The notes beneath the pieces are model-generated. The model saw only the letters and a program-made list of their open reading frames with translations, was not told where the DNA came from and ran no database searches. Shown one piece after another: positions 6,052-19,242 of a DNA stretch of 49,837 nucleotides. Where the stretch lies: the IMG/VR virus record IMGVR_UViG_3300045988_175398. The stretch is one strand, 5' to 3'. The stretch comes from a virus. Made by a program: the position numbers and the translations under genes. The first letter of the stretch is position 1; each line of letters opens with the position of its first letter.

Positions 6052-6083
6052 TATGTAACACATAATGAAAAGGAATTAACAAT

Positions 6084-9290: not shown

Positions 9291-9806
9291 ATGAAAATTG
9301 GAGATATCAAAACAATTCTTGACAGCGGTGATGTGCAAAGATATCACGCCATGCCGTGTGTCAGGGATAAGCAAACAAATTCACAGCACCAATGGCGAGC
9401 ATCTATGATTCTTGGCTTCATCTATAACAAGCCAATATCTTATCAGATGCTTATGGCTTGCCTGCTGCATGACTTTTATGAGATATTCACAGGCGATATC
9501 CCGTCAACTGTAAAATGGGAGCATCCAGAGATTAAGAAGATTGTTGATAGCATTGAAGAGGATTTGGCTATGGCTCACGAAATGTATGTGCCAAGCCAAG
9601 AAGAAAAGGATGCAATCAAGATTGCTGACTGTCTTGAGATGATAACATTTTTGGCTGAGAATACTTCAATTGTTAATTCTGCCAAAGCTCACAAAACTAT
9701 GCTGAATCATATTGAGTGCATTCTTAACAAAGAACAGTACAAATTCAAGCAAGTTTTCAATTCAGATAACATTTACAAAATTGTCGGAGAATACAGTGCA
9801 AGATAG
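9291..9806 (+). CDS. HD-domain phosphohydrolase (YfbR-like 5'-deoxynucleotidase)
   Basis: RYHAMP...H...LLHDFYEIFTGDIP: H, HD, D metal ligands in YfbR-like order; 171 aa. Confidence 0.65.
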   Translation: MKIGDIKTILDSGDVQRYHAMPCVRDKQTNSQHQWRASMILGFIYNKPISYQMLMACLLHDFYEIFTGDIPSTVKWEHPEIKKIVDSIEEDLAMAHEMYVPSQEEKDAIKIADCLEMITFLAENTSIVNSAKAHKTMLNHIECILNKEQYKFKQVFNSDNIYKIVGEYSAR

Positions 9807-10737
9807 ATTACAAATTTGGGGTGCTGGAATGGCAGGGCTTATAGCTGCCAATGTTCTAAGAAAGCACAACCCGATTGTTTATGAAGCAAAATCAGAGCTG
9901 CCTCATAATCATAAAGCCCTTTTGAGATTTAGAACAGATAAAGTGTCGATTGCTACCGGCATTCCATTCAAGAAAGTTAGCATCCGAAAGGCTATATGGC
10001 ACGATGGTAAACTTTACAACGAAAGCAATTTGAAATTTGATAACCTTTATTCCCAGAAAGTCACAGGAACAGTTGCCAAGCGCAGCATCGAGAATTTCCA
10101 TGGTGAAGTTCGCTATATAGCCCCGCACGATTTTGTTGAAAGATTGGCTGAGGGTGTTGAGATTGAATACAATCATAAAGTTGAACAACCAAGTGGTGGT
10201 GTTGCAATTTCAACCTTGCCTATGCCGTTGAATATGAAAATTTCTGGATTGGCTGACAGCACCAAGTATGAATGCAAAGAAATATGTTCTGTGAATTTTT
10301 TCATTGAAGAGCCATTCGTGGATGTTTATCAGACCATTTATGATGTTGATGAGAACACACCATTTTACCGATTGAGCATTTCTGGCAATGAAGGAATTTT
10401 TGAGGGAAGAAAAGAAGTGATTGATGCTTTGTCTGAAAAAGACCCTAATTTCAATTTAGTCAGACCAATTTTAAGGGAATATTTTGGCATAAAAGATGCT
10501 GAATTTACAATCCCTGCAAAGGTTGTTCAGCCACTTGGAAAAATTATTCCTGTGGATGATACAGCCCGCAGAAACAACATTCTTAATTTAAGCCGCGAAA
10601 GGCAAATTTATTCACTTGGCAGATTTGCAACTTGGCGGCAAATTATGCTTGATGATGTGATTGGTGACATTGATGTCATTGAAAAAATCATGAAGCAAGA
10701 CAATTATAACAAAACATTGTACATGTGTAACAGATGA
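9796..10737 (+). CDS. FAD/NAD(P)-binding Rossmann-fold protein (flavoenzyme, function unknown)
   Basis: N-terminal IWGAGMAGLIAANVL (GxGxxG dinucleotide-binding beta-alpha-beta); GTG start at 9796 with GGAGA SD proposed because the first in-frame ATG candidates either lie far upstream (9712, deep overlap) or truncate the Rossmann motif. Confidence 0.45.
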   Translation: MQDRLQIWGAGMAGLIAANVLRKHNPIVYEAKSELPHNHKALLRFRTDKVSIATGIPFKKVSIRKAIWHDGKLYNESNLKFDNLYSQKVTGTVAKRSIENFHGEVRYIAPHDFVERLAEGVEIEYNHKVEQPSGGVAISTLPMPLNMKISGLADSTKYECKEICSVNFFIEEPFVDVYQTIYDVDENTPFYRLSISGNEGIFEGRKEVIDALSEKDPNFNLVRPILREYFGIKDAEFTIPAKVVQPLGKIIPVDDTARRNNILNLSRERQIYSLGRFATWRQIMLDDVIGDIDVIEKIMKQDNYNKTLYMCNR

Positions 10738-10748
10738 AAGGAAACACC

Positions 10749-11351
10749 ATGGCTTCACCAAGAAAAAAGAAGATGGCAAAGTATATGATTGATGATTTGC
10801 TAGCCATCGCAAAGAAACAGATTATCACACTCAATCCTTGTCTTGATTTGAAAGCTGTTTTGCAAAAAATGGCTCAGGAATATGCAGATGTCCAAAAAGA
10901 AATTTTGATAAAACATTTTCCTCAAGATGAAATGGAAATTTTGGCAAAATATAAAAAGGCTTATATTCAGCAGAGCTTTGATTTGCCTCATGCAGGATAT
11001 ACAGGGCAGCTCGGGATTCTTCTTCCTGAAAGTTGGCGATGGAATTTCAGTGATGCAATATATGAAGAAAACCAAAGCAAATATGGAAATATGGTTGATG
11101 AAGAAAAACAGAAGATTAACAAAGAGCTTGAGCTCCAGTTGAAGCCGTACAAGAATCTTCTCAATTCAGTTGGCTATCTTGAAGATGTCATCAAGCATTG
11201 GAACAACAAGGAGGTGGAAGAATACATCTCAAAAAAGTCTGAATGTATAGTTTGCACAGCCTTGGTGACTTTAACTGATGCTGATGTAAAAATCATCAAA
11301 ATGAATGAAAAATTGTTGCAGGAGAAAGAAAATGGAAGTTCGGTTAATTAA
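10749..11351 (+). CDS. hypothetical protein (200 aa)
   Basis: ORF track 10734..11351; ATG at 10749 matches the conserved leader (tgaaaggaaacaccATG). Confidence 0.5.
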   Translation: MASPRKKKMAKYMIDDLLAIAKKQIITLNPCLDLKAVLQKMAQEYADVQKEILIKHFPQDEMEILAKYKKAYIQQSFDLPHAGYTGQLGILLPESWRWNFSDAIYEENQSKYGNMVDEEKQKINKELELQLKPYKNLLNSVGYLEDVIKHWNNKEVEEYISKKSECIVCTALVTLTDADVKIIKMNEKLLQEKENGSSVN

Positions 11352-12057
11352 CTACACCAAAGATGCAGTTGACACACTGCTTTACACGAAAAGCACACGC
11401 CTTGAACTTGGCAAAGAAACAGAAAATAAAATCAAAGCAATGTCAGAAGAAGAAAAGATGGCTGAGCTTGATTATATGAGCAAGACTGTTCCAAGCTCTT
11501 GGGAATTTGTAGATTACATTTTTGAAATCAGAGGTGTGAGCCGTGCATTCACACACCAATTTGTCAGAACTCGTACAGGCTCATACGCACAGCAGACCAT
11601 GCGAATGCTGAATATGGAAAATTTTGACTATGTCAAGAACTATACTTTTGGTGGCAATGGTTTGGCAAGCCAAATTTATGACAAGACCATGGCTGATATC
11701 AATGAAGCATACAAGAAGATGATTGAGCTTGGCATTCCAGAAGAAGATGCAAGGGGCGTTTTGCCGACTAATATTTGCACAAATATCATTGCCAAATTTA
11801 ATTTAAGAACTTTGGCTGAGTTGGCAAAATCTCGCACAGGCTATCGCACACAGAATGAATACAGACAGGTGTTTGATGAGATGATAAAGAGAGTTGTAGA
11901 AGTCCATCCGTGGGCTGAGAAATTCTTAATTTCACATAAAACAGAAGCAGCCATGGGAATGGATAAGTTTATCAATGGTGTTCTGGAAAAGGGTGCTGTC
12001 ACCAAAGATGAAGCTGTTGCTGCTCGCAAGCTTCTTGACATTTTGAGAAAGGAATAG
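11332..12057 (+). CDS. thyX: ThyX-family flavin-dependent thymidylate synthase-like protein
   Basis: RAFTHQFVRTRTGSYAQQTMR aligns to the ThyX signature (RHRx7S region) but with RHR replaced by RTR; 241 aa; start at 11332 (MEVRLINYTKD) with GGAGAAAG SD. Confidence 0.6.
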   Translation: MEVRLINYTKDAVDTLLYTKSTRLELGKETENKIKAMSEEEKMAELDYMSKTVPSSWEFVDYIFEIRGVSRAFTHQFVRTRTGSYAQQTMRMLNMENFDYVKNYTFGGNGLASQIYDKTMADINEAYKKMIELGIPEEDARGVLPTNICTNIIAKFNLRTLAELAKSRTGYRTQNEYRQVFDEMIKRVVEVHPWAEKFLISHKTEAAMGMDKFINGVLEKGAVTKDEAVAARKLLDILRKE

Positions 12058-13566: not shown

Positions 13567-14652
13567 ATGCTGAATAATATTAAAGTCCGCACAGAATATT
13601 CATTCAGAATAGCATACGGATTCATTGAACAAGTTGCCAAGACTATCCCTGGTGATGCCATTGGCATATGCGATAGACACGGGACTTGGGGACATGTTCA
13701 GTTTGCTAAGTATTGCAAAAAATATGGCAAGAAGCCTATTTTTGGAGTTGAGCTGGCGACTGTTGAAAATGCCAAAGAGAATCAGAAGCAGGAAACAACA
13801 TACATTTCATTTTTGGCTCGCAATAATGCAGGACTGAAAGAATTGTATGAGCTGGCGACAAAGTCAACAGAGCAATTCTATTACACACCAAGAATTGACT
13901 ACAATGATGTTTTGGGAGTTAGTGCCAATATTTTCATCATTCTCTCTAACTTTACAGACTACATGCGAGAAAATGAGGATTTTCGGAAGCTATACAGCAG
14001 AGAAAATGTTTTCCTTGGTTTATCCCCCAACACACCTATGAATGCCCACTCGTATGCCAAAAAAATGCGGATTAAATGTGCAGCTGTTTCTGACAACTAT
14101 ATGCTGAAGCCGGAAGATTATCCTGTTTATCAGATTCTTGCCAGTGGTGCAGCTGAATCAAATATCAATCCAATCCATGTTTTGGATGAAGATGAATGGG
14201 AGCTGCTTGGCTGGGATGATGATGAAGCAATTGCCAATGCAAATTTCATAGCTGCTGAGTGTAATGCTGAATTGCCAAAAGCAGAAATGGTGCATCCGCC
14301 TCGTCCTGACACTTTGTACAATATGTGTGTCAAAGGTGCCAAAGAAAGAGGTGTTGACTTAACAAATGAAGTGTACAAAGCAAGATTAAAGAAAGAGTTG
14401 ACTCTTATTGAAAGAAAAGGATTTGAAGATTATTTTTATTTGATTGCCGACTTGTGCAAATTCAGCAAGAAACATATGCTTGTTGGTCCAGCCCGTGGCA
14501 GCTCATCAGGAAGTCTTGTTTGCTATCTTTTGTATATCACTGATATTGACCCAATTCCATATGATTTGATTTTTGAACGCTTTATTGACATCAATCGTGG
14601 AGGGCACAGATTCAATAAAAAAGTTGTTGACTTTTTTGAAAATATGGAATAA
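13567..14652 (+). CDS. dnaE: DNA polymerase III alpha (DnaE-type) N-terminal fragment: degenerate PHP domain + start of palm
   Basis: GPARGSSSGSLVCYLLYITDIDPIPYDLIFERFI matches the conserved DnaE segment GRGSxAGSLVAYxLxITDxDPL...FERFLNPER; ORF stops just before the catalytic PDxDxDF motif. Confidence 0.7.
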   Translation: MLNNIKVRTEYSFRIAYGFIEQVAKTIPGDAIGICDRHGTWGHVQFAKYCKKYGKKPIFGVELATVENAKENQKQETTYISFLARNNAGLKELYELATKSTEQFYYTPRIDYNDVLGVSANIFIILSNFTDYMRENEDFRKLYSRENVFLGLSPNTPMNAHSYAKKMRIKCAAVSDNYMLKPEDYPVYQILASGAAESNINPIHVLDEDEWELLGWDDDEAIANANFIAAECNAELPKAEMVHPPRPDTLYNMCVKGAKERGVDLTNEVYKARLKKELTLIERKGFEDYFYLIADLCKFSKKHMLVGPARGSSSGSLVCYLLYITDIDPIPYDLIFERFIDINRGGHRFNKKVVDFFENME

Positions 14653-14684
14653 AGTTTGATTGACATAAACAGATAGGATTATCT

Positions 14685-15506
14685 ATGCAAGAAAAAGAAG
14701 AGCTTGAAGAACTTTTGAAAAAATACAATTCTCAAAAAAGAGTTGCAGAGATTCTTCATGTTAGCCAAATGGCAATATCTCGCAAGAAAAGGAAACTTGG
14801 AATCACCCATGATGGTAAGATTCTTGCAAATAAAGATTATTCAAAAAGAATGCAGCAATCAGAAATGATGGCAAATAAATATGAATCAAGAGAAATTTCT
14901 CCATATTGGCTTGGCAAAAAACAACCTGAAGAAATGATTGAAAAAAGAGTTGCAAAAATAAAAGGAAAGGCTGCATGGAATTCAGGAACAGCAAAGAAAA
15001 TTGATAGCACCTGCCAGCAGTGTGGCAAAATTTTTCAGCACTCTCCTTCAAGAAAAAGAAAATTTTGTTCACTTGACTGCAGGAATAAATATTTTTCTAT
15101 TTTGTATTCTGATGGAAGGCTTAAAAATAAGAATAATCCGAATTTCGCTAACGGCGAGAAAATACATCTTGCTCACATTCGAGGTTGCTATGAAAATAGA
15201 GTTCTTCCGGAATATACAAGAGGGAAAAAGATAAGACACAATGGCAATACATTCAGAAGCTCATGGGAATATGAATATGCAATCTGGCTTGAAGAAAATT
15301 CAATTGATTATTTATATGAGAGCAAAAGATTTAAGTTATCAGATGGCAGAACATATACACCAGATTTTTATATACCATCTAAAGATGAATTTATAGAAAT
15401 AAAGGGATTCTGGTATGAAAAAGCGAAAGAAAAATTCTGCAAATTTAGACAGGAATATCCTGATATTAAAATTTTAATTATAGAGGACAAGCAATGGAAG
15501 ATTTAA
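14685..15506 (+). CDS. homing-endonuclease-like protein inserted in dnaE (N-terminal HTH, CxxC...CxxC zinc ribbon, C-terminal PD-(D/E)XK nuclease)
   Basis: RVAEILHVSQMAISRKKRKLGI (HTH); CQQCGKIF...CSLDCRNKYF (zinc ribbon); TPDFYIPSKDEFIEIKG (PD...E-x-K); sits exactly between the two DnaE halves. Confidence 0.55.
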   Translation: MQEKEELEELLKKYNSQKRVAEILHVSQMAISRKKRKLGITHDGKILANKDYSKRMQQSEMMANKYESREISPYWLGKKQPEEMIEKRVAKIKGKAAWNSGTAKKIDSTCQQCGKIFQHSPSRKRKFCSLDCRNKYFSILYSDGRLKNKNNPNFANGEKIHLAHIRGCYENRVLPEYTRGKKIRHNGNTFRSSWEYEYAIWLEENSIDYLYESKRFKLSDGRTYTPDFYIPSKDEFIEIKGFWYEKAKEKFCKFRQEYPDIKILIIEDKQWKI

Positions 15507-17530
15507 TTGAAAAAATTGAAGAATTATCCGATAAAAAAGGGCTTAGCAGAAAAATAATCAACAGTGAAATTTCATCATTGCTGTCTTGTGATAAAGTTTT
15601 CAAAAAGATTGAAGCTATGTATGAAGAAGGAAAGAAAATTGATTCTGATAAAATGAATTTTTGGACGCTTTATCTTCTTGGAATAACAGACAAAGAGCCT
15701 ACTCAGCAGCAGCTTGATGAGTGTTTCTATTACATTCCTGACTATCCTGATATTGATATTGACTTCCAAGACACCAAGCGTGATATGGTTTTTGAATACT
15801 TAAAAGAAACATATGGTGCAGAATGCGTTGCCAGAATTGGTTCGGTTAGCCGTTACAAAGCAAAATCTACAATCACTGATGTGGCAAAGGAATTGCAAAT
15901 TCCAGTTTGGGAAGTCGAAGACTTAAAAGGAGCTATCATTGAGCGAAGTGGTGGTGATGCCCGTGCAGCATTCTGTATTATGGACACTTTTAATGAGCTT
16001 GATATTGGCAAGAAAACTCTTGAAAAATATCCGCAGCTGGCTATTGCTGCCAAACTTGAAGCCCATGCCCGCCACACAGGACAGCACGCAGCAGGAACTT
16101 TGGTAACTGCTCATCCATTGAGCAACTATTGCTCTGGTGATGCTCACACAGGTGCAACCCAAATTGATAAAAAGGATGCAGAAGTTCTTGACTTGTTAAA
16201 GATTGATGCTTTGGGGCTTAGAACTTTGACAATCATTCAGGAAATTCTTGACAATGTAGGCTGGACACGTGATGACTTGCTGAATTATCCAATGGATGAC
16301 CAAGAAGCATTTGACATTTTGAACAAAAGAAAATTTACAGGCGTTTTTCAGTTTGAAGGAACAGCACTGCAATCACTTTGTGGACAGATTGATGTCAATG
16401 AGTTTGAAGACATCGTCAGCATCACAGCTTTGGCTCGACCTGGACCATTGGTCAGTGGTGGTGCAACCAAATTCTGTGCAAGAAGGACTGGCAAAGAAAA
16501 AACAACCTATCTGCATCCAATGATGGAAAAGCATACCAAAATTACATATGGCATTGTTGTTTATCAAGAGCAAGTTATGACAATCGGGCGTGATATTGGC
16601 AAGCTATCTTGGGAAGATGTTTCTGCTTTGCGTAAAGCCATGTCAAAATCTCTCGGAAAAGAGTTCTTTGACCAATATTGGGAGAAATTCAAAATTGGTG
16701 CAATTGAGAATGGTTTGACAGAGCAGGAAGCCCAAACAATTTGGGAGCAGATTAACACCATGGGATCTTGGGCATTTAACCGTTCGCATGCCGTCAGCTA
16801 TGGATTAGTTAGCTATTGGACAATGGTTTTGAAGGCAAAATTCCCAATTGAATTTGCAGCTGCAACCTTGCGCAATGCCAAAGATGAAGACCAATGTATC
16901 AGGCTGTTGCGTGAGATGGTTAAGGAAGGATTTGGATATTGTGCATTTGACAAAGAAAAATCTGAAAAGAATTGGAGCATCAAAGACAATACAATCTATG
17001 GCGGATATATCAATGTCAAAGGAATTGGACCAAAGATTGCGGATGATATTGAGTTGAGAAGAAAAGAAGGAAGACCATTGACTCCAAGACAAGAGAAATT
17101 GCTTGAAACAGCTGTTACAAAGTATGACTGTTTGTTTGAAGGCAAAGAAAGATTTGGTGATATTTACGAGCATCCGGAAAAATACAACATTGCCACCAAA
17201 ATAAGCCTGATTGAAGAGTTGGATGGTGATGCTGAGGGTGTTGTGCTTTTCTTGGGCAAAATATCAGAAAAGAACTTGCGTGATGACAACGAACTTATCA
17301 ATGTGGAAAAGCGTGGCGGATATAGAATCAAAGGACAGTCTTTGTTCTTAAACTTCCGCGCTGAAGATGACACAGACAAAATCCTTTGCCGAGTTAACAG
17401 AGACAAATATCTGCAATATGGCAAGCCAATCGTTGAAGATGGCAGAGATGGTGACTGGTACATTTTCAAAGGGCGCAAAATTAAAGGATTGAGAATGGTT
17501 AACATTCTGAGATGGAGAAAAATATCGTGA
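15494..17530 (+). CDS. dnaE: DNA polymerase III alpha (DnaE-type) C-terminal fragment: catalytic palm (PDIDIDF) + fingers/thumb
   Basis: WTLYLLGITDKEPT...YIPDYPDIDIDFQDTKRDMVFEYLKETYG matches DnaE ...LGITDVDPL...PDFDIDF...R..V..Y...KYG; own SD (GAGGA) and ATG. Confidence 0.7.
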   Translation: MEDLIEKIEELSDKKGLSRKIINSEISSLLSCDKVFKKIEAMYEEGKKIDSDKMNFWTLYLLGITDKEPTQQQLDECFYYIPDYPDIDIDFQDTKRDMVFEYLKETYGAECVARIGSVSRYKAKSTITDVAKELQIPVWEVEDLKGAIIERSGGDARAAFCIMDTFNELDIGKKTLEKYPQLAIAAKLEAHARHTGQHAAGTLVTAHPLSNYCSGDAHTGATQIDKKDAEVLDLLKIDALGLRTLTIIQEILDNVGWTRDDLLNYPMDDQEAFDILNKRKFTGVFQFEGTALQSLCGQIDVNEFEDIVSITALARPGPLVSGGATKFCARRTGKEKTTYLHPMMEKHTKITYGIVVYQEQVMTIGRDIGKLSWEDVSALRKAMSKSLGKEFFDQYWEKFKIGAIENGLTEQEAQTIWEQINTMGSWAFNRSHAVSYGLVSYWTMVLKAKFPIEFAAATLRNAKDEDQCIRLLREMVKEGFGYCAFDKEKSEKNWSIKDNTIYGGYINVKGIGPKIADDIELRRKEGRPLTPRQEKLLETAVTKYDCLFEGKERFGDIYEHPEKYNIATKISLIEELDGDAEGVVLFLGKISEKNLRDDNELINVEKRGGYRIKGQSLFLNFRAEDDTDKILCRVNRDKYLQYGKPIVEDGRDGDWYIFKGRKIKGLRMVNILRWRKIS

Positions 17531-19242
17531 TTATTTCACATTACAGCGGAAATTATTGCATCATTAAAGATGGTTGCAAAAACGGCGGTTTTGCCAAGCT
17601 GACAAATCTGCCTGGTTATAAAAGATGGCAAGGGCGTGACCTTATTTTCAGACCAGCAGCCAATGCCATTCAGTTTATCAATGAAAACTTTGATGATGTG
17701 CATTGGGAAGAATCAGCTCAGACATTCTTGGATGAATATATAAGAGTTGCCAAGCAGGCTGAATTGAACAAGAATAACAAGACAGGGAACATAGACTTTT
17801 CCATGGATGGACATCTGTATAAACGCCCGCCAATGGACCACCAGAGAAAAGCATTCATGATAAGTAGAGACCAGCAGGAGTTTGGGCTATTTATGGAGCA
17901 AGGAACTGGCAAGACAAAAGTCATCATTGACACAGCAGCATATCTGTATGGAAAAGGTGAAATTGATTGCTTTGTTATTATTGCTTGGCCAAATGGTGTG
18001 CATCGCAACTGGATTGACACAGAGTTAGATGAGGACATGCCAAATTGGTGTCCTTATAAGGCTTGCTGGTATAGTTCAAACTTGACCAAAGCCAAGAAGA
18101 AAGAAATTGAGGATGTTTACAATTTTGACAAAGGTTTGCGAATTATCAGCTTCAATGCAGAAGCCTTTGTTTCTGATAAAGCCAAAGAATTGATTTATAA
18201 ATTTGTTCATGATTTCAAAACACTGCTGGTGCTTGACCAATCTGCATGTATCAAGAATCCAACAGCCAAGCGCACAAAATTCTTAGCAGATAAAATTGCA
18301 CCTCTTGCCAAATTCCGGCGTATTTTGGACGGACAGCCTGTGGCTGAGGGTGGTGAGGAATTGTACAGCCAGTTCAAATTCCTGAATCCGATGATTATTG
18401 GCTGTGACACTTGGACAGCATTCAAGGCAGAATATTGCAAAATTGGCTTCTTCAATGAAGTGGTTGGTTATAAAAACATGGACAAACTTTATGATAAAAT
18501 TGACGGATATTCATACAGAGTTCTTGAGAAAGATTGTTTGGATTTGCCAAAGCGTATTTACAAAAAATGGCACTTTGATTTGTCAGATAAAGAATCTGCT
18601 ATTTATGAAGATTTGCGAAAGACCAGCATTGCAGAATTTGAGGGTGAAACACTAGCTGAGCAGCTGCCACTTGTCAAGAATATGAGATTGCAGCAAGTTG
18701 CCAGAGGCTGGTGGGTGCAAAGAGATGAAGCCAGTGGAAAAATTGTCACCAAAACAAGAACCATTGAAGAAGTCCCCTCAGCCCTTAAAGCATTGGATGA
18801 AGTCTTGGCAACCTATACTGGCAAAGCAATTATCTTCAGCAGATATCGTGCAGACCTTGAACTGCTTAAAAAGCATCTTGGTGACAAGGCTGTGACATAT
18901 TATGGTGGCATGAGTGATGATGATAAGCACAATGCCAAAGTTCAATTTCAAATCAATCCTGACATCTTGTATTTTATAGGACAGCCCCGCACTGCCGGTA
19001 TTGGGCACACTTTGACTGCTGCCAAGAATGTGATATTCTACAGCAATGATACAAGTTTGCGTTTTCGTGAGGAAAGTGAGAAGAGAGCCCACAGAAAGGG
19101 ACAAACAGAAAGGGTGCATGTTATTGACTTAATTGCCAATGGTACAGTTGACAAGAAAACAGTTAACGCTTTGCGCAGCAAGAAAGAACTGAGCGAATTT
19201 ATTTTGAGAGACCCAGAATCATTCTTTATGAAGGAGGAATAA
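17512..19242 (+). CDS. SF2 (SNF2/DEAD-like) helicase
   Basis: MEQGTGKT (motif I), LVLDQS (motif II, DExx-like), C-terminal helicase domain (IIFSRY...YYGG...GQP); 576 aa. Confidence 0.6.
   Translation: MEKNIVIISHYSGNYCIIKDGCKNGGFAKLTNLPGYKRWQGRDLIFRPAANAIQFINENFDDVHWEESAQTFLDEYIRVAKQAELNKNNKTGNIDFSMDGHLYKRPPMDHQRKAFMISRDQQEFGLFMEQGTGKTKVIIDTAAYLYGKGEIDCFVIIAWPNGVHRNWIDTELDEDMPNWCPYKACWYSSNLTKAKKKEIEDVYNFDKGLRIISFNAEAFVSDKAKELIYKFVHDFKTLLVLDQSACIKNPTAKRTKFLADKIAPLAKFRRILDGQPVAEGGEELYSQFKFLNPMIIGCDTWTAFKAEYCKIGFFNEVVGYKNMDKLYDKIDGYSYRVLEKDCLDLPKRIYKKWHFDLSDKESAIYEDLRKTSIAEFEGETLAEQLPLVKNMRLQQVARGWWVQRDEASGKIVTKTRTIEEVPSALKALDEVLATYTGKAIIFSRYRADLELLKKHLGDKAVTYYGGMSDDDKHNAKVQFQINPDILYFIGQPRTAGIGHTLTAAKNVIFYSNDTSLRFREESEKRAHRKGQTERVHVIDLIANGTVDKKTVNALRSKKELSEFILRDPESFFMKEE

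Follow-up and report, generated by a model that had tools for sequence, protein, structure and literature searches.

Two open reading frames for one phage DNA polymerase III alpha and the homing-endonuclease-like gene between them

We wanted to understand how a phage could come to encode its DNA polymerase III alpha subunit (Pol III alpha, gene dnaE) in two pieces, with the gene of a nuclease lying between them. The locus is found in IMG/VR virus record IMGVR_UViG_3300045988_175398, a stretch of 49,837 nucleotides (nt) that is referred to here as the window, in which an open reading frame (ORF) for the N-terminal part of DnaE, an ORF for an endonuclease-like protein and an ORF for the C-terminal part of DnaE follow one another on the same strand. 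A preliminary description made from the letters alone had read the arrangement as a two-polypeptide polymerase, fragmented by a free-standing homing endonuclease gene, and had kept a group I intron in reserve. All three ORFs were found as described, and the anatomy of the locus, the alleles of its close relatives and the conservation of the inserted cassette support the first of these readings. We think it likely that dnaE is here fractured without intein or intron, that it would yield a Pol III alpha of two polypeptides with a composite active site, and that the fracture is borne by a cassette made mobile by homing.

The split gene and its alleles

Both halves have DnaE homology when searched against Pfam and PHROG profiles, a check that the preliminary description had proposed. 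The N fragment contains the PHP domain and positions 2-98 of the 260 in the DNA_pol3_alpha profile, the C fragment contains positions 73-260 of the same profile and the finger domain (5.5e-41), and PHROG 405 (DNA polymerase) divides between the halves cleanly at profile position 439/440. Once the two ORFs are combined, the PHP domain, the palm with its catalytic DxD and the finger of a C-family polymerase (DnaE/Pol III alpha) are all found. On Taq Pol III alpha (2HPI), the break falls after the equivalent of R458, 4-5 residues before the first catalytic aspartate, and D86 and D88 of the C fragment (nt 15749 and 15755) map to D463 and D465. The break had been placed just before the PDxDxDF motif; it lies five residues ahead of D463/D465. 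The core of the N fragment takes in the GPARGSSSGS loop (aa 307-316, nt 14485-14514) as well as the original helix SLVCYLLYITDIDP...FERFIDINR (nt 14512-14598). This fragment had been said to end at ...INRGG; its actual end lies 15 residues further on (HRFNKKVVDFFENME), at a stop codon at 14650-14652. The C fragment does have its own ribosome-binding site and ATG, namely GAGGA at 15483-15487, 6 nt upstream of an ATG at 15494 that falls within the final 13 nt of the endonuclease ORF (a start/stop overlap of 13 nt).

The insertion site was defined by comparison with uninterrupted dnaE genes. Among close relatives, by which we mean IMG/VR contigs with >90% nucleotide identity to the window, dnaE occurs in three states. 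In L010 and L011 it is intact (97% amino acid identity), and the sequence that joins window position 14598 to 15737 reads ...ATCAATCGT CTTGATTATCCTGATATTGAT... (INR-LDYPDIDIDF), so that the insert is window 14599-15736. In the L010-type allele, with a slash for the insertion point, the surroundings read ATCAATCGT/CTTGATTATCC and the site TTCATTGATATCAATCGT/CTTGATTATCCTGATATTGAT. The window and L007, whose endonucleases are 90% identical, have the split together with the endonuclease gene. Six further relatives (L004, L005, L006, L008, L009, and L022) have the split without it, with an insert of about 300 nt and two types of junction: L004 equals the window sequence minus 14651-15481, deleted at an ATA microhomology, and in L005 the tail ends in ...FFEGV plus stop, TAATGATGG joins this stop to the next start, and the ribosome-binding site is AAGGAG. 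Many close relatives lack the endonuclease gene and are nevertheless split, so that the mobile unit is the cassette (tail, optional endonuclease gene and extension) and not the endonuclease gene alone. Proteins of 941, 678, and 360/361 aa recur, from many samples, inside one 590-member protein cluster at 90% identity.

More distant relatives are all intact (about 40 loci, 33-66% identity). A megablast search of the locus against GenBank phages gave no match, and the closest isolates, Vibrio phage VA-RY-3 and Cronobacter phage Ss1 (about 46% identical), each have a single DnaE of 931 aa. The N fragment aligns to residues 3-325 of VA-RY-3 DnaE (37% identity, as far as ...FERFIDINR) and diverges thereafter; the C fragment aligns to residues 299-915 (46% identity), starting at YLMGITEVDP. 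The features of the locus are collected in Table 1.

Table 1. Features of the split dnaE locus, in window coordinates
Feature	Position	Strand	Length	Basis or remark
DnaE N-fragment ORF	13567-14652	+	361 aa	
Endonuclease-like ORF	14685-15506	+	273 aa	
DnaE C-fragment ORF	15494-17530	+	678 aa	
N-fragment core (PHP and N-terminal half of palm)	13567-14598	+		Pfam; collinear with intact L010/L011 up to 14598
Diverged flank, cassette-linked	14388-14598	+		Sliding identity, segment BLAST, alignment
C-terminal tail of N fragment, cassette-borne	14599-14652	+		GGHRFNKKVVDFFENME and stop codon; absent from intact DnaE
Spacer before endonuclease gene	14653-14684	+		Weak AGGA ribosome-binding site, 14675-14678
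N-terminal extension of C fragment, cassette-borne, predicted helical	15494-15736	+	81 codons	Absent from intact alleles
Degenerate second palm-helix copy within extension	15659-15736	+		FWTLYLLGITDKEPTQQQLDECFYYI; Pfam/PHROG overlap; hhalign
C-fragment core (catalytic strand PDYPDIDIDF, remaining palm, thumb, fingers, C-terminal OB-like part)	15737-17530	+		Pfam; VA-RY-3 alignment

Three other dnaE loci also appear broken. In Vibrio phage PVA7 (L003, PQ582223.1, 4049-6745), dnaE is annotated as three overlapping coding sequences with frame changes and no gene between them, a pattern more suggestive of frameshifts in the sequencing than of a split by an endonuclease. L041 (1209-4022) has a 280-aa PHP ORF followed by a 638-aa ORF that begins MLVGPAR, so that its dnaE is apparently broken elsewhere, and L040 (3184-5836) has a 611-aa C-terminal part of dnaE with about 800 nt upstream of it that hold no called gene; these breaks may be other splits, frameshifts or scaffold gaps. 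Shorter DnaE matches (P0093 and P0101/P0102) were considered as further break points and set aside as probable frameshifts or gaps.

Separate translation of the two halves

Much of the insert evolves as coding sequence. When the extension was compared among eight split alleles, the variable sites in its 81 codons numbered 9/5/35 by codon position, 29 codons had synonymous variation only versus 13 with amino acid changes, and the pairwise ratio of nonsynonymous to synonymous substitution rates (dN/dS) was 0.05-0.2 (about 0.1) with dS up to 0.66. The third-position bias and the low dN/dS indicate that the extension is translated. Its residues 50-70, which include the duplicated helix described below, are invariant as protein in the window's clade despite synonymous changes. 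The endonuclease gene has a dN/dS of 0.10 (window versus L007), and the polymerase cores of both halves have 0.02 at a dS of 0.3-0.4. The tails at the break (14599-14649 and 15494-15736) are missing from all intact loci. Seven lineages conserve them and, as measured on the extension, they are under selection.

These data bear on whether the halves are rejoined. A group I or other self-splicing intron, with the endonuclease ORF in one of its loops, would restore the dnaE mRNA; the core of an intron could well have the length of the insert in the endonuclease-less alleles (about 300 nt), group I introns do occur in phage polymerase genes, and the exon-1 side ends in T. However, Rfam gave no intron match at E≤10, either over window 14300-16000 or in the endonuclease-less insert, and the insert ends in ...ACATT, that is, in T and not in G. 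Further, the 81 codons stay open in the downstream frame with the codon-position bias and constraint given above, the extension starts from a ribosome-binding site and an ATG of its own, and the tail has a conserved in-frame stop. The intron held in reserve by the preliminary description is thus rejected, and we find it scarcely credible.

The same description had argued that the insert is not an in-frame intein, and with this we agree. A subtler version would make tail and extension the halves of a split intein, perhaps an atypical one with a very short N part, that joins DnaE by trans-splicing. Known fractured genes, among them three dnaE loci (PMC2677866), have the same order of host-N, endonuclease and host-C, an ORF with an intein-splicing domain contains a distant homologue of the nuclease domain (P0043, see below), and some lineages have ...HN/S or ...N/S directly before the Y.LGITD copy. 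Yet no Hint or intein Pfam domain was found in either fragment at E≤0.1, and the junction residues do not support protein splicing: the first residue after INR is Gly and not Cys, Ser or Ala, the residue after the extension, ahead of PDIDIDF, is Pro, Asp or Leu and not Cys, Ser or Thr, and the N/S position is N/F in the window. Tail and extension together come to about 100 aa, less than known mini-inteins, and an alternative excision point would take out conserved DnaE sequence. We consider a split intein highly improbable.

A programmed frameshift or bypass that joins the halves was also ruled out, because the frame offset between them differs among alleles. Each half has translation signals of its own (the stop at 14650-14652, and GAGGA with ATG at 15483-15496), and splicing elements are lacking. 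Since intron, intein and frameshift are excluded and both cores are strongly constrained, the polymerase is evidently made as two polypeptides and functional, as far as can be judged from sequence, in line with the two-polypeptide Pol III alpha first suggested. We looked for a translational hairpin of the kind described for mobE and for fractured genes and found none; likewise, hairpins, promoters and terminators near the endonuclease start and the C-fragment start gave nothing above chance, and the spacer before the endonuclease gene held no significant RNA hairpin and no convincing promoter or terminator.

It might still be argued that the gene is decaying into a pseudogene, or that its split is an artefact of assembly, and that the phage uses another polymerase. 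An interruption five residues ahead of the catalytic aspartates would seem to disable the enzyme, and apparent frameshifts break dnaE in other metagenomic sequences (L003, L040, and L041). Against this, the same architecture is present on dozens of independent contigs from different samples and is kept across lineages only about 40% identical, both halves evolve at a dN/dS of 0.02, and the ORFs scanned, which cover part of the window, include no second polymerase. We give decay or artefact next to no credence.

The preliminary description had further noted a palm segment of about 25 aa that is present in both halves. The overlap stands: since the N fragment spans profile positions 2-98 and the C fragment 73-260, positions 73-98 are covered twice, a second PHROG likewise gives an overlap of 25 positions, and residues 320-344 of the N fragment and 60-84 of the C fragment match the same 25 codons in every intact locus (>40 loci). 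The downstream copy, which reads YLLGITDKEP..., is degenerate, and direct similarity between the two copies is barely detectable. When the extension was compared with the upstream palm by hhalign, E was 3e-11 with PDIDIDF kept, 9.6e-5 after PDIDIDF had been removed and 0.29, without significance, after Y.LGITD..P had been removed as well. About one helix (SLVxYLLGITDxDP) is therefore demonstrably duplicated, with faint traces of FERF, and a longer duplication was rejected. Y60, L62, G63, D66, and P69 of the extension copy are invariant across lineages. We conclude that the duplicated junction is an old, degenerate and selected part of the cassette, common to at least seven divergent phage lineages, and not a fresh target-site duplication. 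The helix copy in the N fragment is fully conserved too, and both copies therefore cannot occupy the native palm position.

The endonuclease gene and its cassette across lineages

The endonuclease ORF encodes an N-terminal helix-turn-helix (HTH; aa 3-40, Pfam HTH_50), a CxxC...CxxxC zinc ribbon (aa 110-132, nt 15012-15080) and a C-terminal PD-(D/E)XK domain like that of T7 endonuclease I (aa 182-266; Pfam Phage_endo_I, E=4.5e-8), and its PHROGs matches are resolvase/endonuclease families. T7 endonuclease I (PDB 1M0D) aligned at E=7.7e-7 with its catalytic Glu, Asp, Glu, and Lys conserved; the corresponding E195, D227, E238, and K240, whose codons start at nt 15267, 15363, 15396, and 15402, are invariant in 19 homologues. 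An AlphaFold2 (AF2) model with a predicted local distance difference test score (pLDDT) of 80.6 has HTH helices, a β-ribbon that bears CxxC...CxxxC and an α/β nuclease domain, and a Foldseek search with it returned T7 endonuclease I, Bax1, and Vsr, all as weak matches. The exact protein is found on 21 contigs, and its homologues contain NUMOD3 and HTH modules, which are typical of homing endonucleases. The gene thus has an active site that is intact, DNA-binding modules and a pattern of presence and absence at one conserved site, and on these grounds we classify it as a free-standing homing-endonuclease-like gene.

Could it instead be a resolvase or repair nuclease that serves the phage, for example as a replication accessory coexpressed with the polymerase? 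Its closest solved relative is a Holliday-junction resolvase, T7 endonuclease I, and the gene is under purifying selection. But it is dispensable, because it is absent from close relatives, both the six that are split without it and those with intact dnaE; its sequence-specific DNA-binding modules (HTH and zinc ribbon, with NUMOD3 in homologues) are those of homing endonucleases; and the sole location observed is one conserved codon position of dnaE. We regard such a role as very unlikely.

We read the gene context of the window's endonuclease and of six full-length homologues of 36-58% identity (P0003, P0011, P0013, P0009, P0006, and P0010). All seven lie between a DnaE-N of 332-365 aa and a DnaE-C. 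In every lineage the break comes after FERFID(I/V)(N/D/T/S)R, at the same split codon; the tail begins GG[HYWF] after the Arg, encoded by GGAGGN; the endonuclease stop overlaps or abuts the start of the C fragment; and an extension of 76-84 residues ends in ...NS.L.Y.LGITDEKP..., followed by (D)(L/Y)PDIDIDF. From these comparisons we judge the cassette to be old, conserved and specific to one site in dnaE. In trees of the N core and of the C core, split lineages are interspersed with intact ones. When the extension alone served as query of a profile search, a single fragment was found, probably because clustering has placed the split fragments beneath intact representatives.

The split could also have come first, with the endonuclease gene as a later, opportunistic insertion between dnaE genes that were already separate. 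Six close relatives are split without the endonuclease gene, at two different compact junctions, and intergenic gaps are the typical home of free-standing homing endonuclease genes (PMC3045599). However, the endonuclease is present in 7/7 divergent lineages with its stop overlapping the C-fragment start, and each of the seven full-length homologues with context read sits at this dnaE site. The split alleles without endonuclease are confined to the window's clade and look like deletions (L004, with its ATA microhomology), and the end of the L005 tail (...GV and stop) resembles the tail of L030, a divergent split lineage, just ahead of the L030 endonuclease start. A split that preceded the endonuclease therefore seems unlikely to us. 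We also note that L030 (5825-8329; ENA ERZ23498458 scaffold_199) has a DnaE C fragment of 834 aa with an extra in-frame insert of weak Intein_splicing similarity (aa 466-568, E=7e-6, under the Pfam cut-off); its dnaE may host both an endonuclease cassette and a mini-intein.

The sequence next to the insert is consistent with transfer of the cassette by recombination. About 210 nt upstream of it (Table 1), split and intact alleles diverge by 15-19%, versus about 3-8% in neighboring segments, and this flank carries 7 fixed amino acid differences; it may be a tract that was co-converted with the cassette. Among the loci fetched, no donor matches it better than the window's own clade. At the insertion site, all intact alleles encode the same invariant active-site motif. 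Invariant motifs of this kind are the usual target choice of homing endonucleases. In addition, intact alleles have a perfect 12-bp palindrome, ATTGATATCAAT, that ends 3 nt before the insertion point (L010/L011, about 6058-6069), and 8/8 split alleles have ATTGACATCAAT there (window 14584-14595) by a synonymous change of GAT to GAC, which may be part of the endonuclease target or may have hitch-hiked.

We propose the following sequence of events. The cassette, made up from 5' to 3' of an RGG-aromatic tail with its stop, the endonuclease gene, an overlapping ribosome-binding site and start and a helical extension of about 80 residues, follows the Arg codon of FERFIDINR and precedes the x-D-Y/L-PDIDIDF strand. 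The two halves would associate noncovalently and rebuild a Pol-beta-like palm, to which the N fragment would bring the PHP domain, the glycine/serine loop GPARGSSSGS and two palm helices, and the C fragment the DxD strand, the remaining palm and the fingers. Indirect support for an active enzyme of two chains comes from the dN/dS of 0.02 in the cores and from how long the split has persisted. Tail and extension most likely act as assembly elements, by analogy with NrdA-a/NrdA-b of phage Aeh1 (see below). The most probable targets of the endonuclease are intact dnaE alleles met during co-infection, which it would cut at the conserved site; recombinational repair would then transfer the cassette, with some of the DNA next to it, to the allele that was cut. 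The insert would destroy the target site and make split alleles immune, after which the endonuclease gene may be lost and leave a stable split gene.

Several points weigh against fracture by a homing cassette. An AF2 model of the C fragment alone gives the extension, which is all-helical, a pLDDT of 30-46, and much of the palm has low confidence too. Tail and extension lack the consistent pattern of opposite charge that is seen in NrdA, and an electrostatic zipper between them was rejected on this account. No other polymerase was found among the ORFs scanned, but only part of the window was screened, and a back-up enzyme is possible. Lastly, endonuclease identity roughly tracks host-gene identity across lineages, so that horizontal homing and vertical descent with repeated loss are both possible; on these sequences, long vertical co-descent with repeated loss would explain the patchy distribution as well as horizontal homing does.

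The cassette might even be a portable break-and-mend kit, in which an uncharacterized family of homing endonucleases (T7-endonuclease-I-like nuclease, HTH and zinc ribbon), dedicated to one codon of phage dnaE, comes with an antidote, the tail and the extension with its palm-helix mimic, that lets a two-chain, Pol-beta-like catalytic core fold in any recipient dnaE. This is a tentative idea and we hold it to be doubtful. If it were true, phages of lineages about 40% identical would long have been replicating with a two-chain C-family polymerase whose active site spans both chains, and the extension would be a natural, transferable module for split-protein complementation.

Relatives of the nuclease also occur outside dnaE. 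A 237-aa protein (P0017, L036:4001-4714), free-standing among tail-module genes of an unrelated phage, matches in the nuclease domain alone (52% identity over about 30% of the query), so that this domain is found elsewhere with other N-terminal parts. In L038 (3252-6810) and L039, the 388-aa ORF P0043 combines an intein-splicing domain with similarity to an endonuclease-I-like nuclease and lies between ORFs of 249 and 548 aa, just ahead of the gene for the portal protein; a terminase-like gene may be fractured here, with a nuclease related to ours.

As to the surroundings of dnaE, the window is a tailed-phage genome of about 50 kb with terminase, portal, capsid, tape measure, primase-helicase and ThyX genes, and the same contig is recorded from human gut metagenomes. 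A DnaQ-like exonuclease gene lies immediately upstream of dnaE. Downstream, an SNF2-family helicase gene (17512-19242) begins 19 nt ahead of the stop of dnaE-C; in L076-L078 its start is called differently, with an overlap of 4 nt. Together with the overlap of endonuclease and C fragment, this suggests tight translational coupling across the whole replication operon. An HD-domain dNTPase (9291-9806), a MazG-like pyrophosphatase (2212-2778) and ThyX (11305-12057) are all encoded in the replication module, and a 341-aa ORF (9712-10737) adjoins. The dNTPase weakly resembles DatZ (PDB 6ZPA, E=1e-3), and the 341-aa ORF has no Pfam or PDB match and hence gives no evidence for PurZ.

Significance and comparison with known systems

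If our reading is right, C-family Pol III alpha would join the few essential enzymes that function after a mobile endonuclease gene has cut them at the active site, without any splicing. One human-gut phage population would then hold empty, invaded and invaded-minus-endonuclease stages of homing side by side and could serve as a natural system for studying how a selfish element neutralizes its own damage. The split site of Pol III alpha with its assembly peptides, and a new endonuclease with a long, conserved target, are candidate parts for engineering, and the locus would gain in interest if the extension proved to be a transferable assembly module. For annotation, metagenomic DnaE calls of 361 and 678 aa would have to be taken as real two-gene polymerases and not as fragments.

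The nearest precedent is nrdA-a/mobE/nrdA-b of Aeromonas phage Aeh1 (Friedrich et al. 2007; Crona et al. 2010), in which tails derived from mobE are essential for the split NrdA (PMC3045599). As there, an endonuclease ORF lies between two ORFs that are jointly collinear with one intact homologue, and a free-standing homing endonuclease gene interrupts an essential gene of nucleotide metabolism or replication at the active site, with neither intron nor intein. In both cases the halves are translated separately and have C- and N-terminal tails that came with the insertion, with a composite active site that is deduced here from sequence. The differences are that the host gene is dnaE and not nrdA, that the nuclease is a T7-endonuclease-I-like PD-(D/E)XK enzyme and not an HNH one, that the extension is about 80 aa long, with a degenerate copy of the host helix that precedes it, and that the tails have no opposite-charge pattern. 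Further, the Aeh1 arrangement is that of a single phage, whereas the cassette is conserved at one site in at least seven divergent lineages.

The fractured genes of Dassa et al. 2009 include three dnaE loci with split inteins at other sites, and an intein-less, endonuclease-fractured SbcD-like locus with tails of 25 and 9 residues (PMC2677866). Our locus has in common with that set the order of host-N, free-standing endonuclease and host-C in uncultured phages, dnaE as one of the hosts and the occurrence of an allele without endonuclease (gp41-7 in the earlier set; PMC2677866). Unlike it, the endonuclease is endonuclease-I-like and not GIY-YIG or Vsr-like (EDxHD), and the Cys, Ser or Thr that intein sites need as +1 residue is absent (PMC2677866). 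As a split intein was sought and is absent, the locus is not a fractured gene in the strict sense of Dassa et al.

Where PMC2677866 and PMC3045599 touch on them, gp43 (PolB) of Aeromonas phage 25 and relatives is described as split and T4 gp39/gp60 as split by mobA. By these accounts, a replication enzyme is likewise in two pieces with an endonuclease gene between, and the pieces function as separate polypeptides; gp43, however, is a B-family enzyme and not a C-family Pol III alpha, the nucleases are GIY-YIG and HNH, and T4 gene 60 has ribosomal bypassing, of which we see no sign here.

Pol III alpha is encoded by two genes in cyanobacteria too, where the Ssp/Npu DnaE split intein ligates halves from distant loci by protein trans-splicing and no endonuclease is involved. 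The site is a different one, and in the window the genes are adjacent and intein motifs are lacking. With T7 endonuclease I (gp3; PDB 1M0D and 2PFJ) the nuclease shares the E...D...E-x-K catalytic constellation. The T7 enzyme is a structure-specific resolvase without HTH or zinc-ribbon modules. A precedent for a PD-(D/E)XK homing endonuclease is I-Ssp6803I (PMC2677866), which differs from the present family in being intron-encoded and very divergent.

In the literature that we searched, neither this split of dnaE nor any homing endonuclease of the endonuclease-I-like kind is described. Overall, we conclude that the locus belongs to a known kind, that of genes fragmented by a free-standing endonuclease, beside Aeh1 nrdA/mobE, phage 25 gp43, T4 gp39/gp60 (the last two on the accounts cited) and the SbcD-like locus. 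What is new in comparison with them is an intein-less Pol III alpha split beside its catalytic aspartates, an endonuclease-I-like nuclease in such a role, an extension with a mimic of a host helix, a cassette conserved in at least seven lineages and a full series of alleles in one population.

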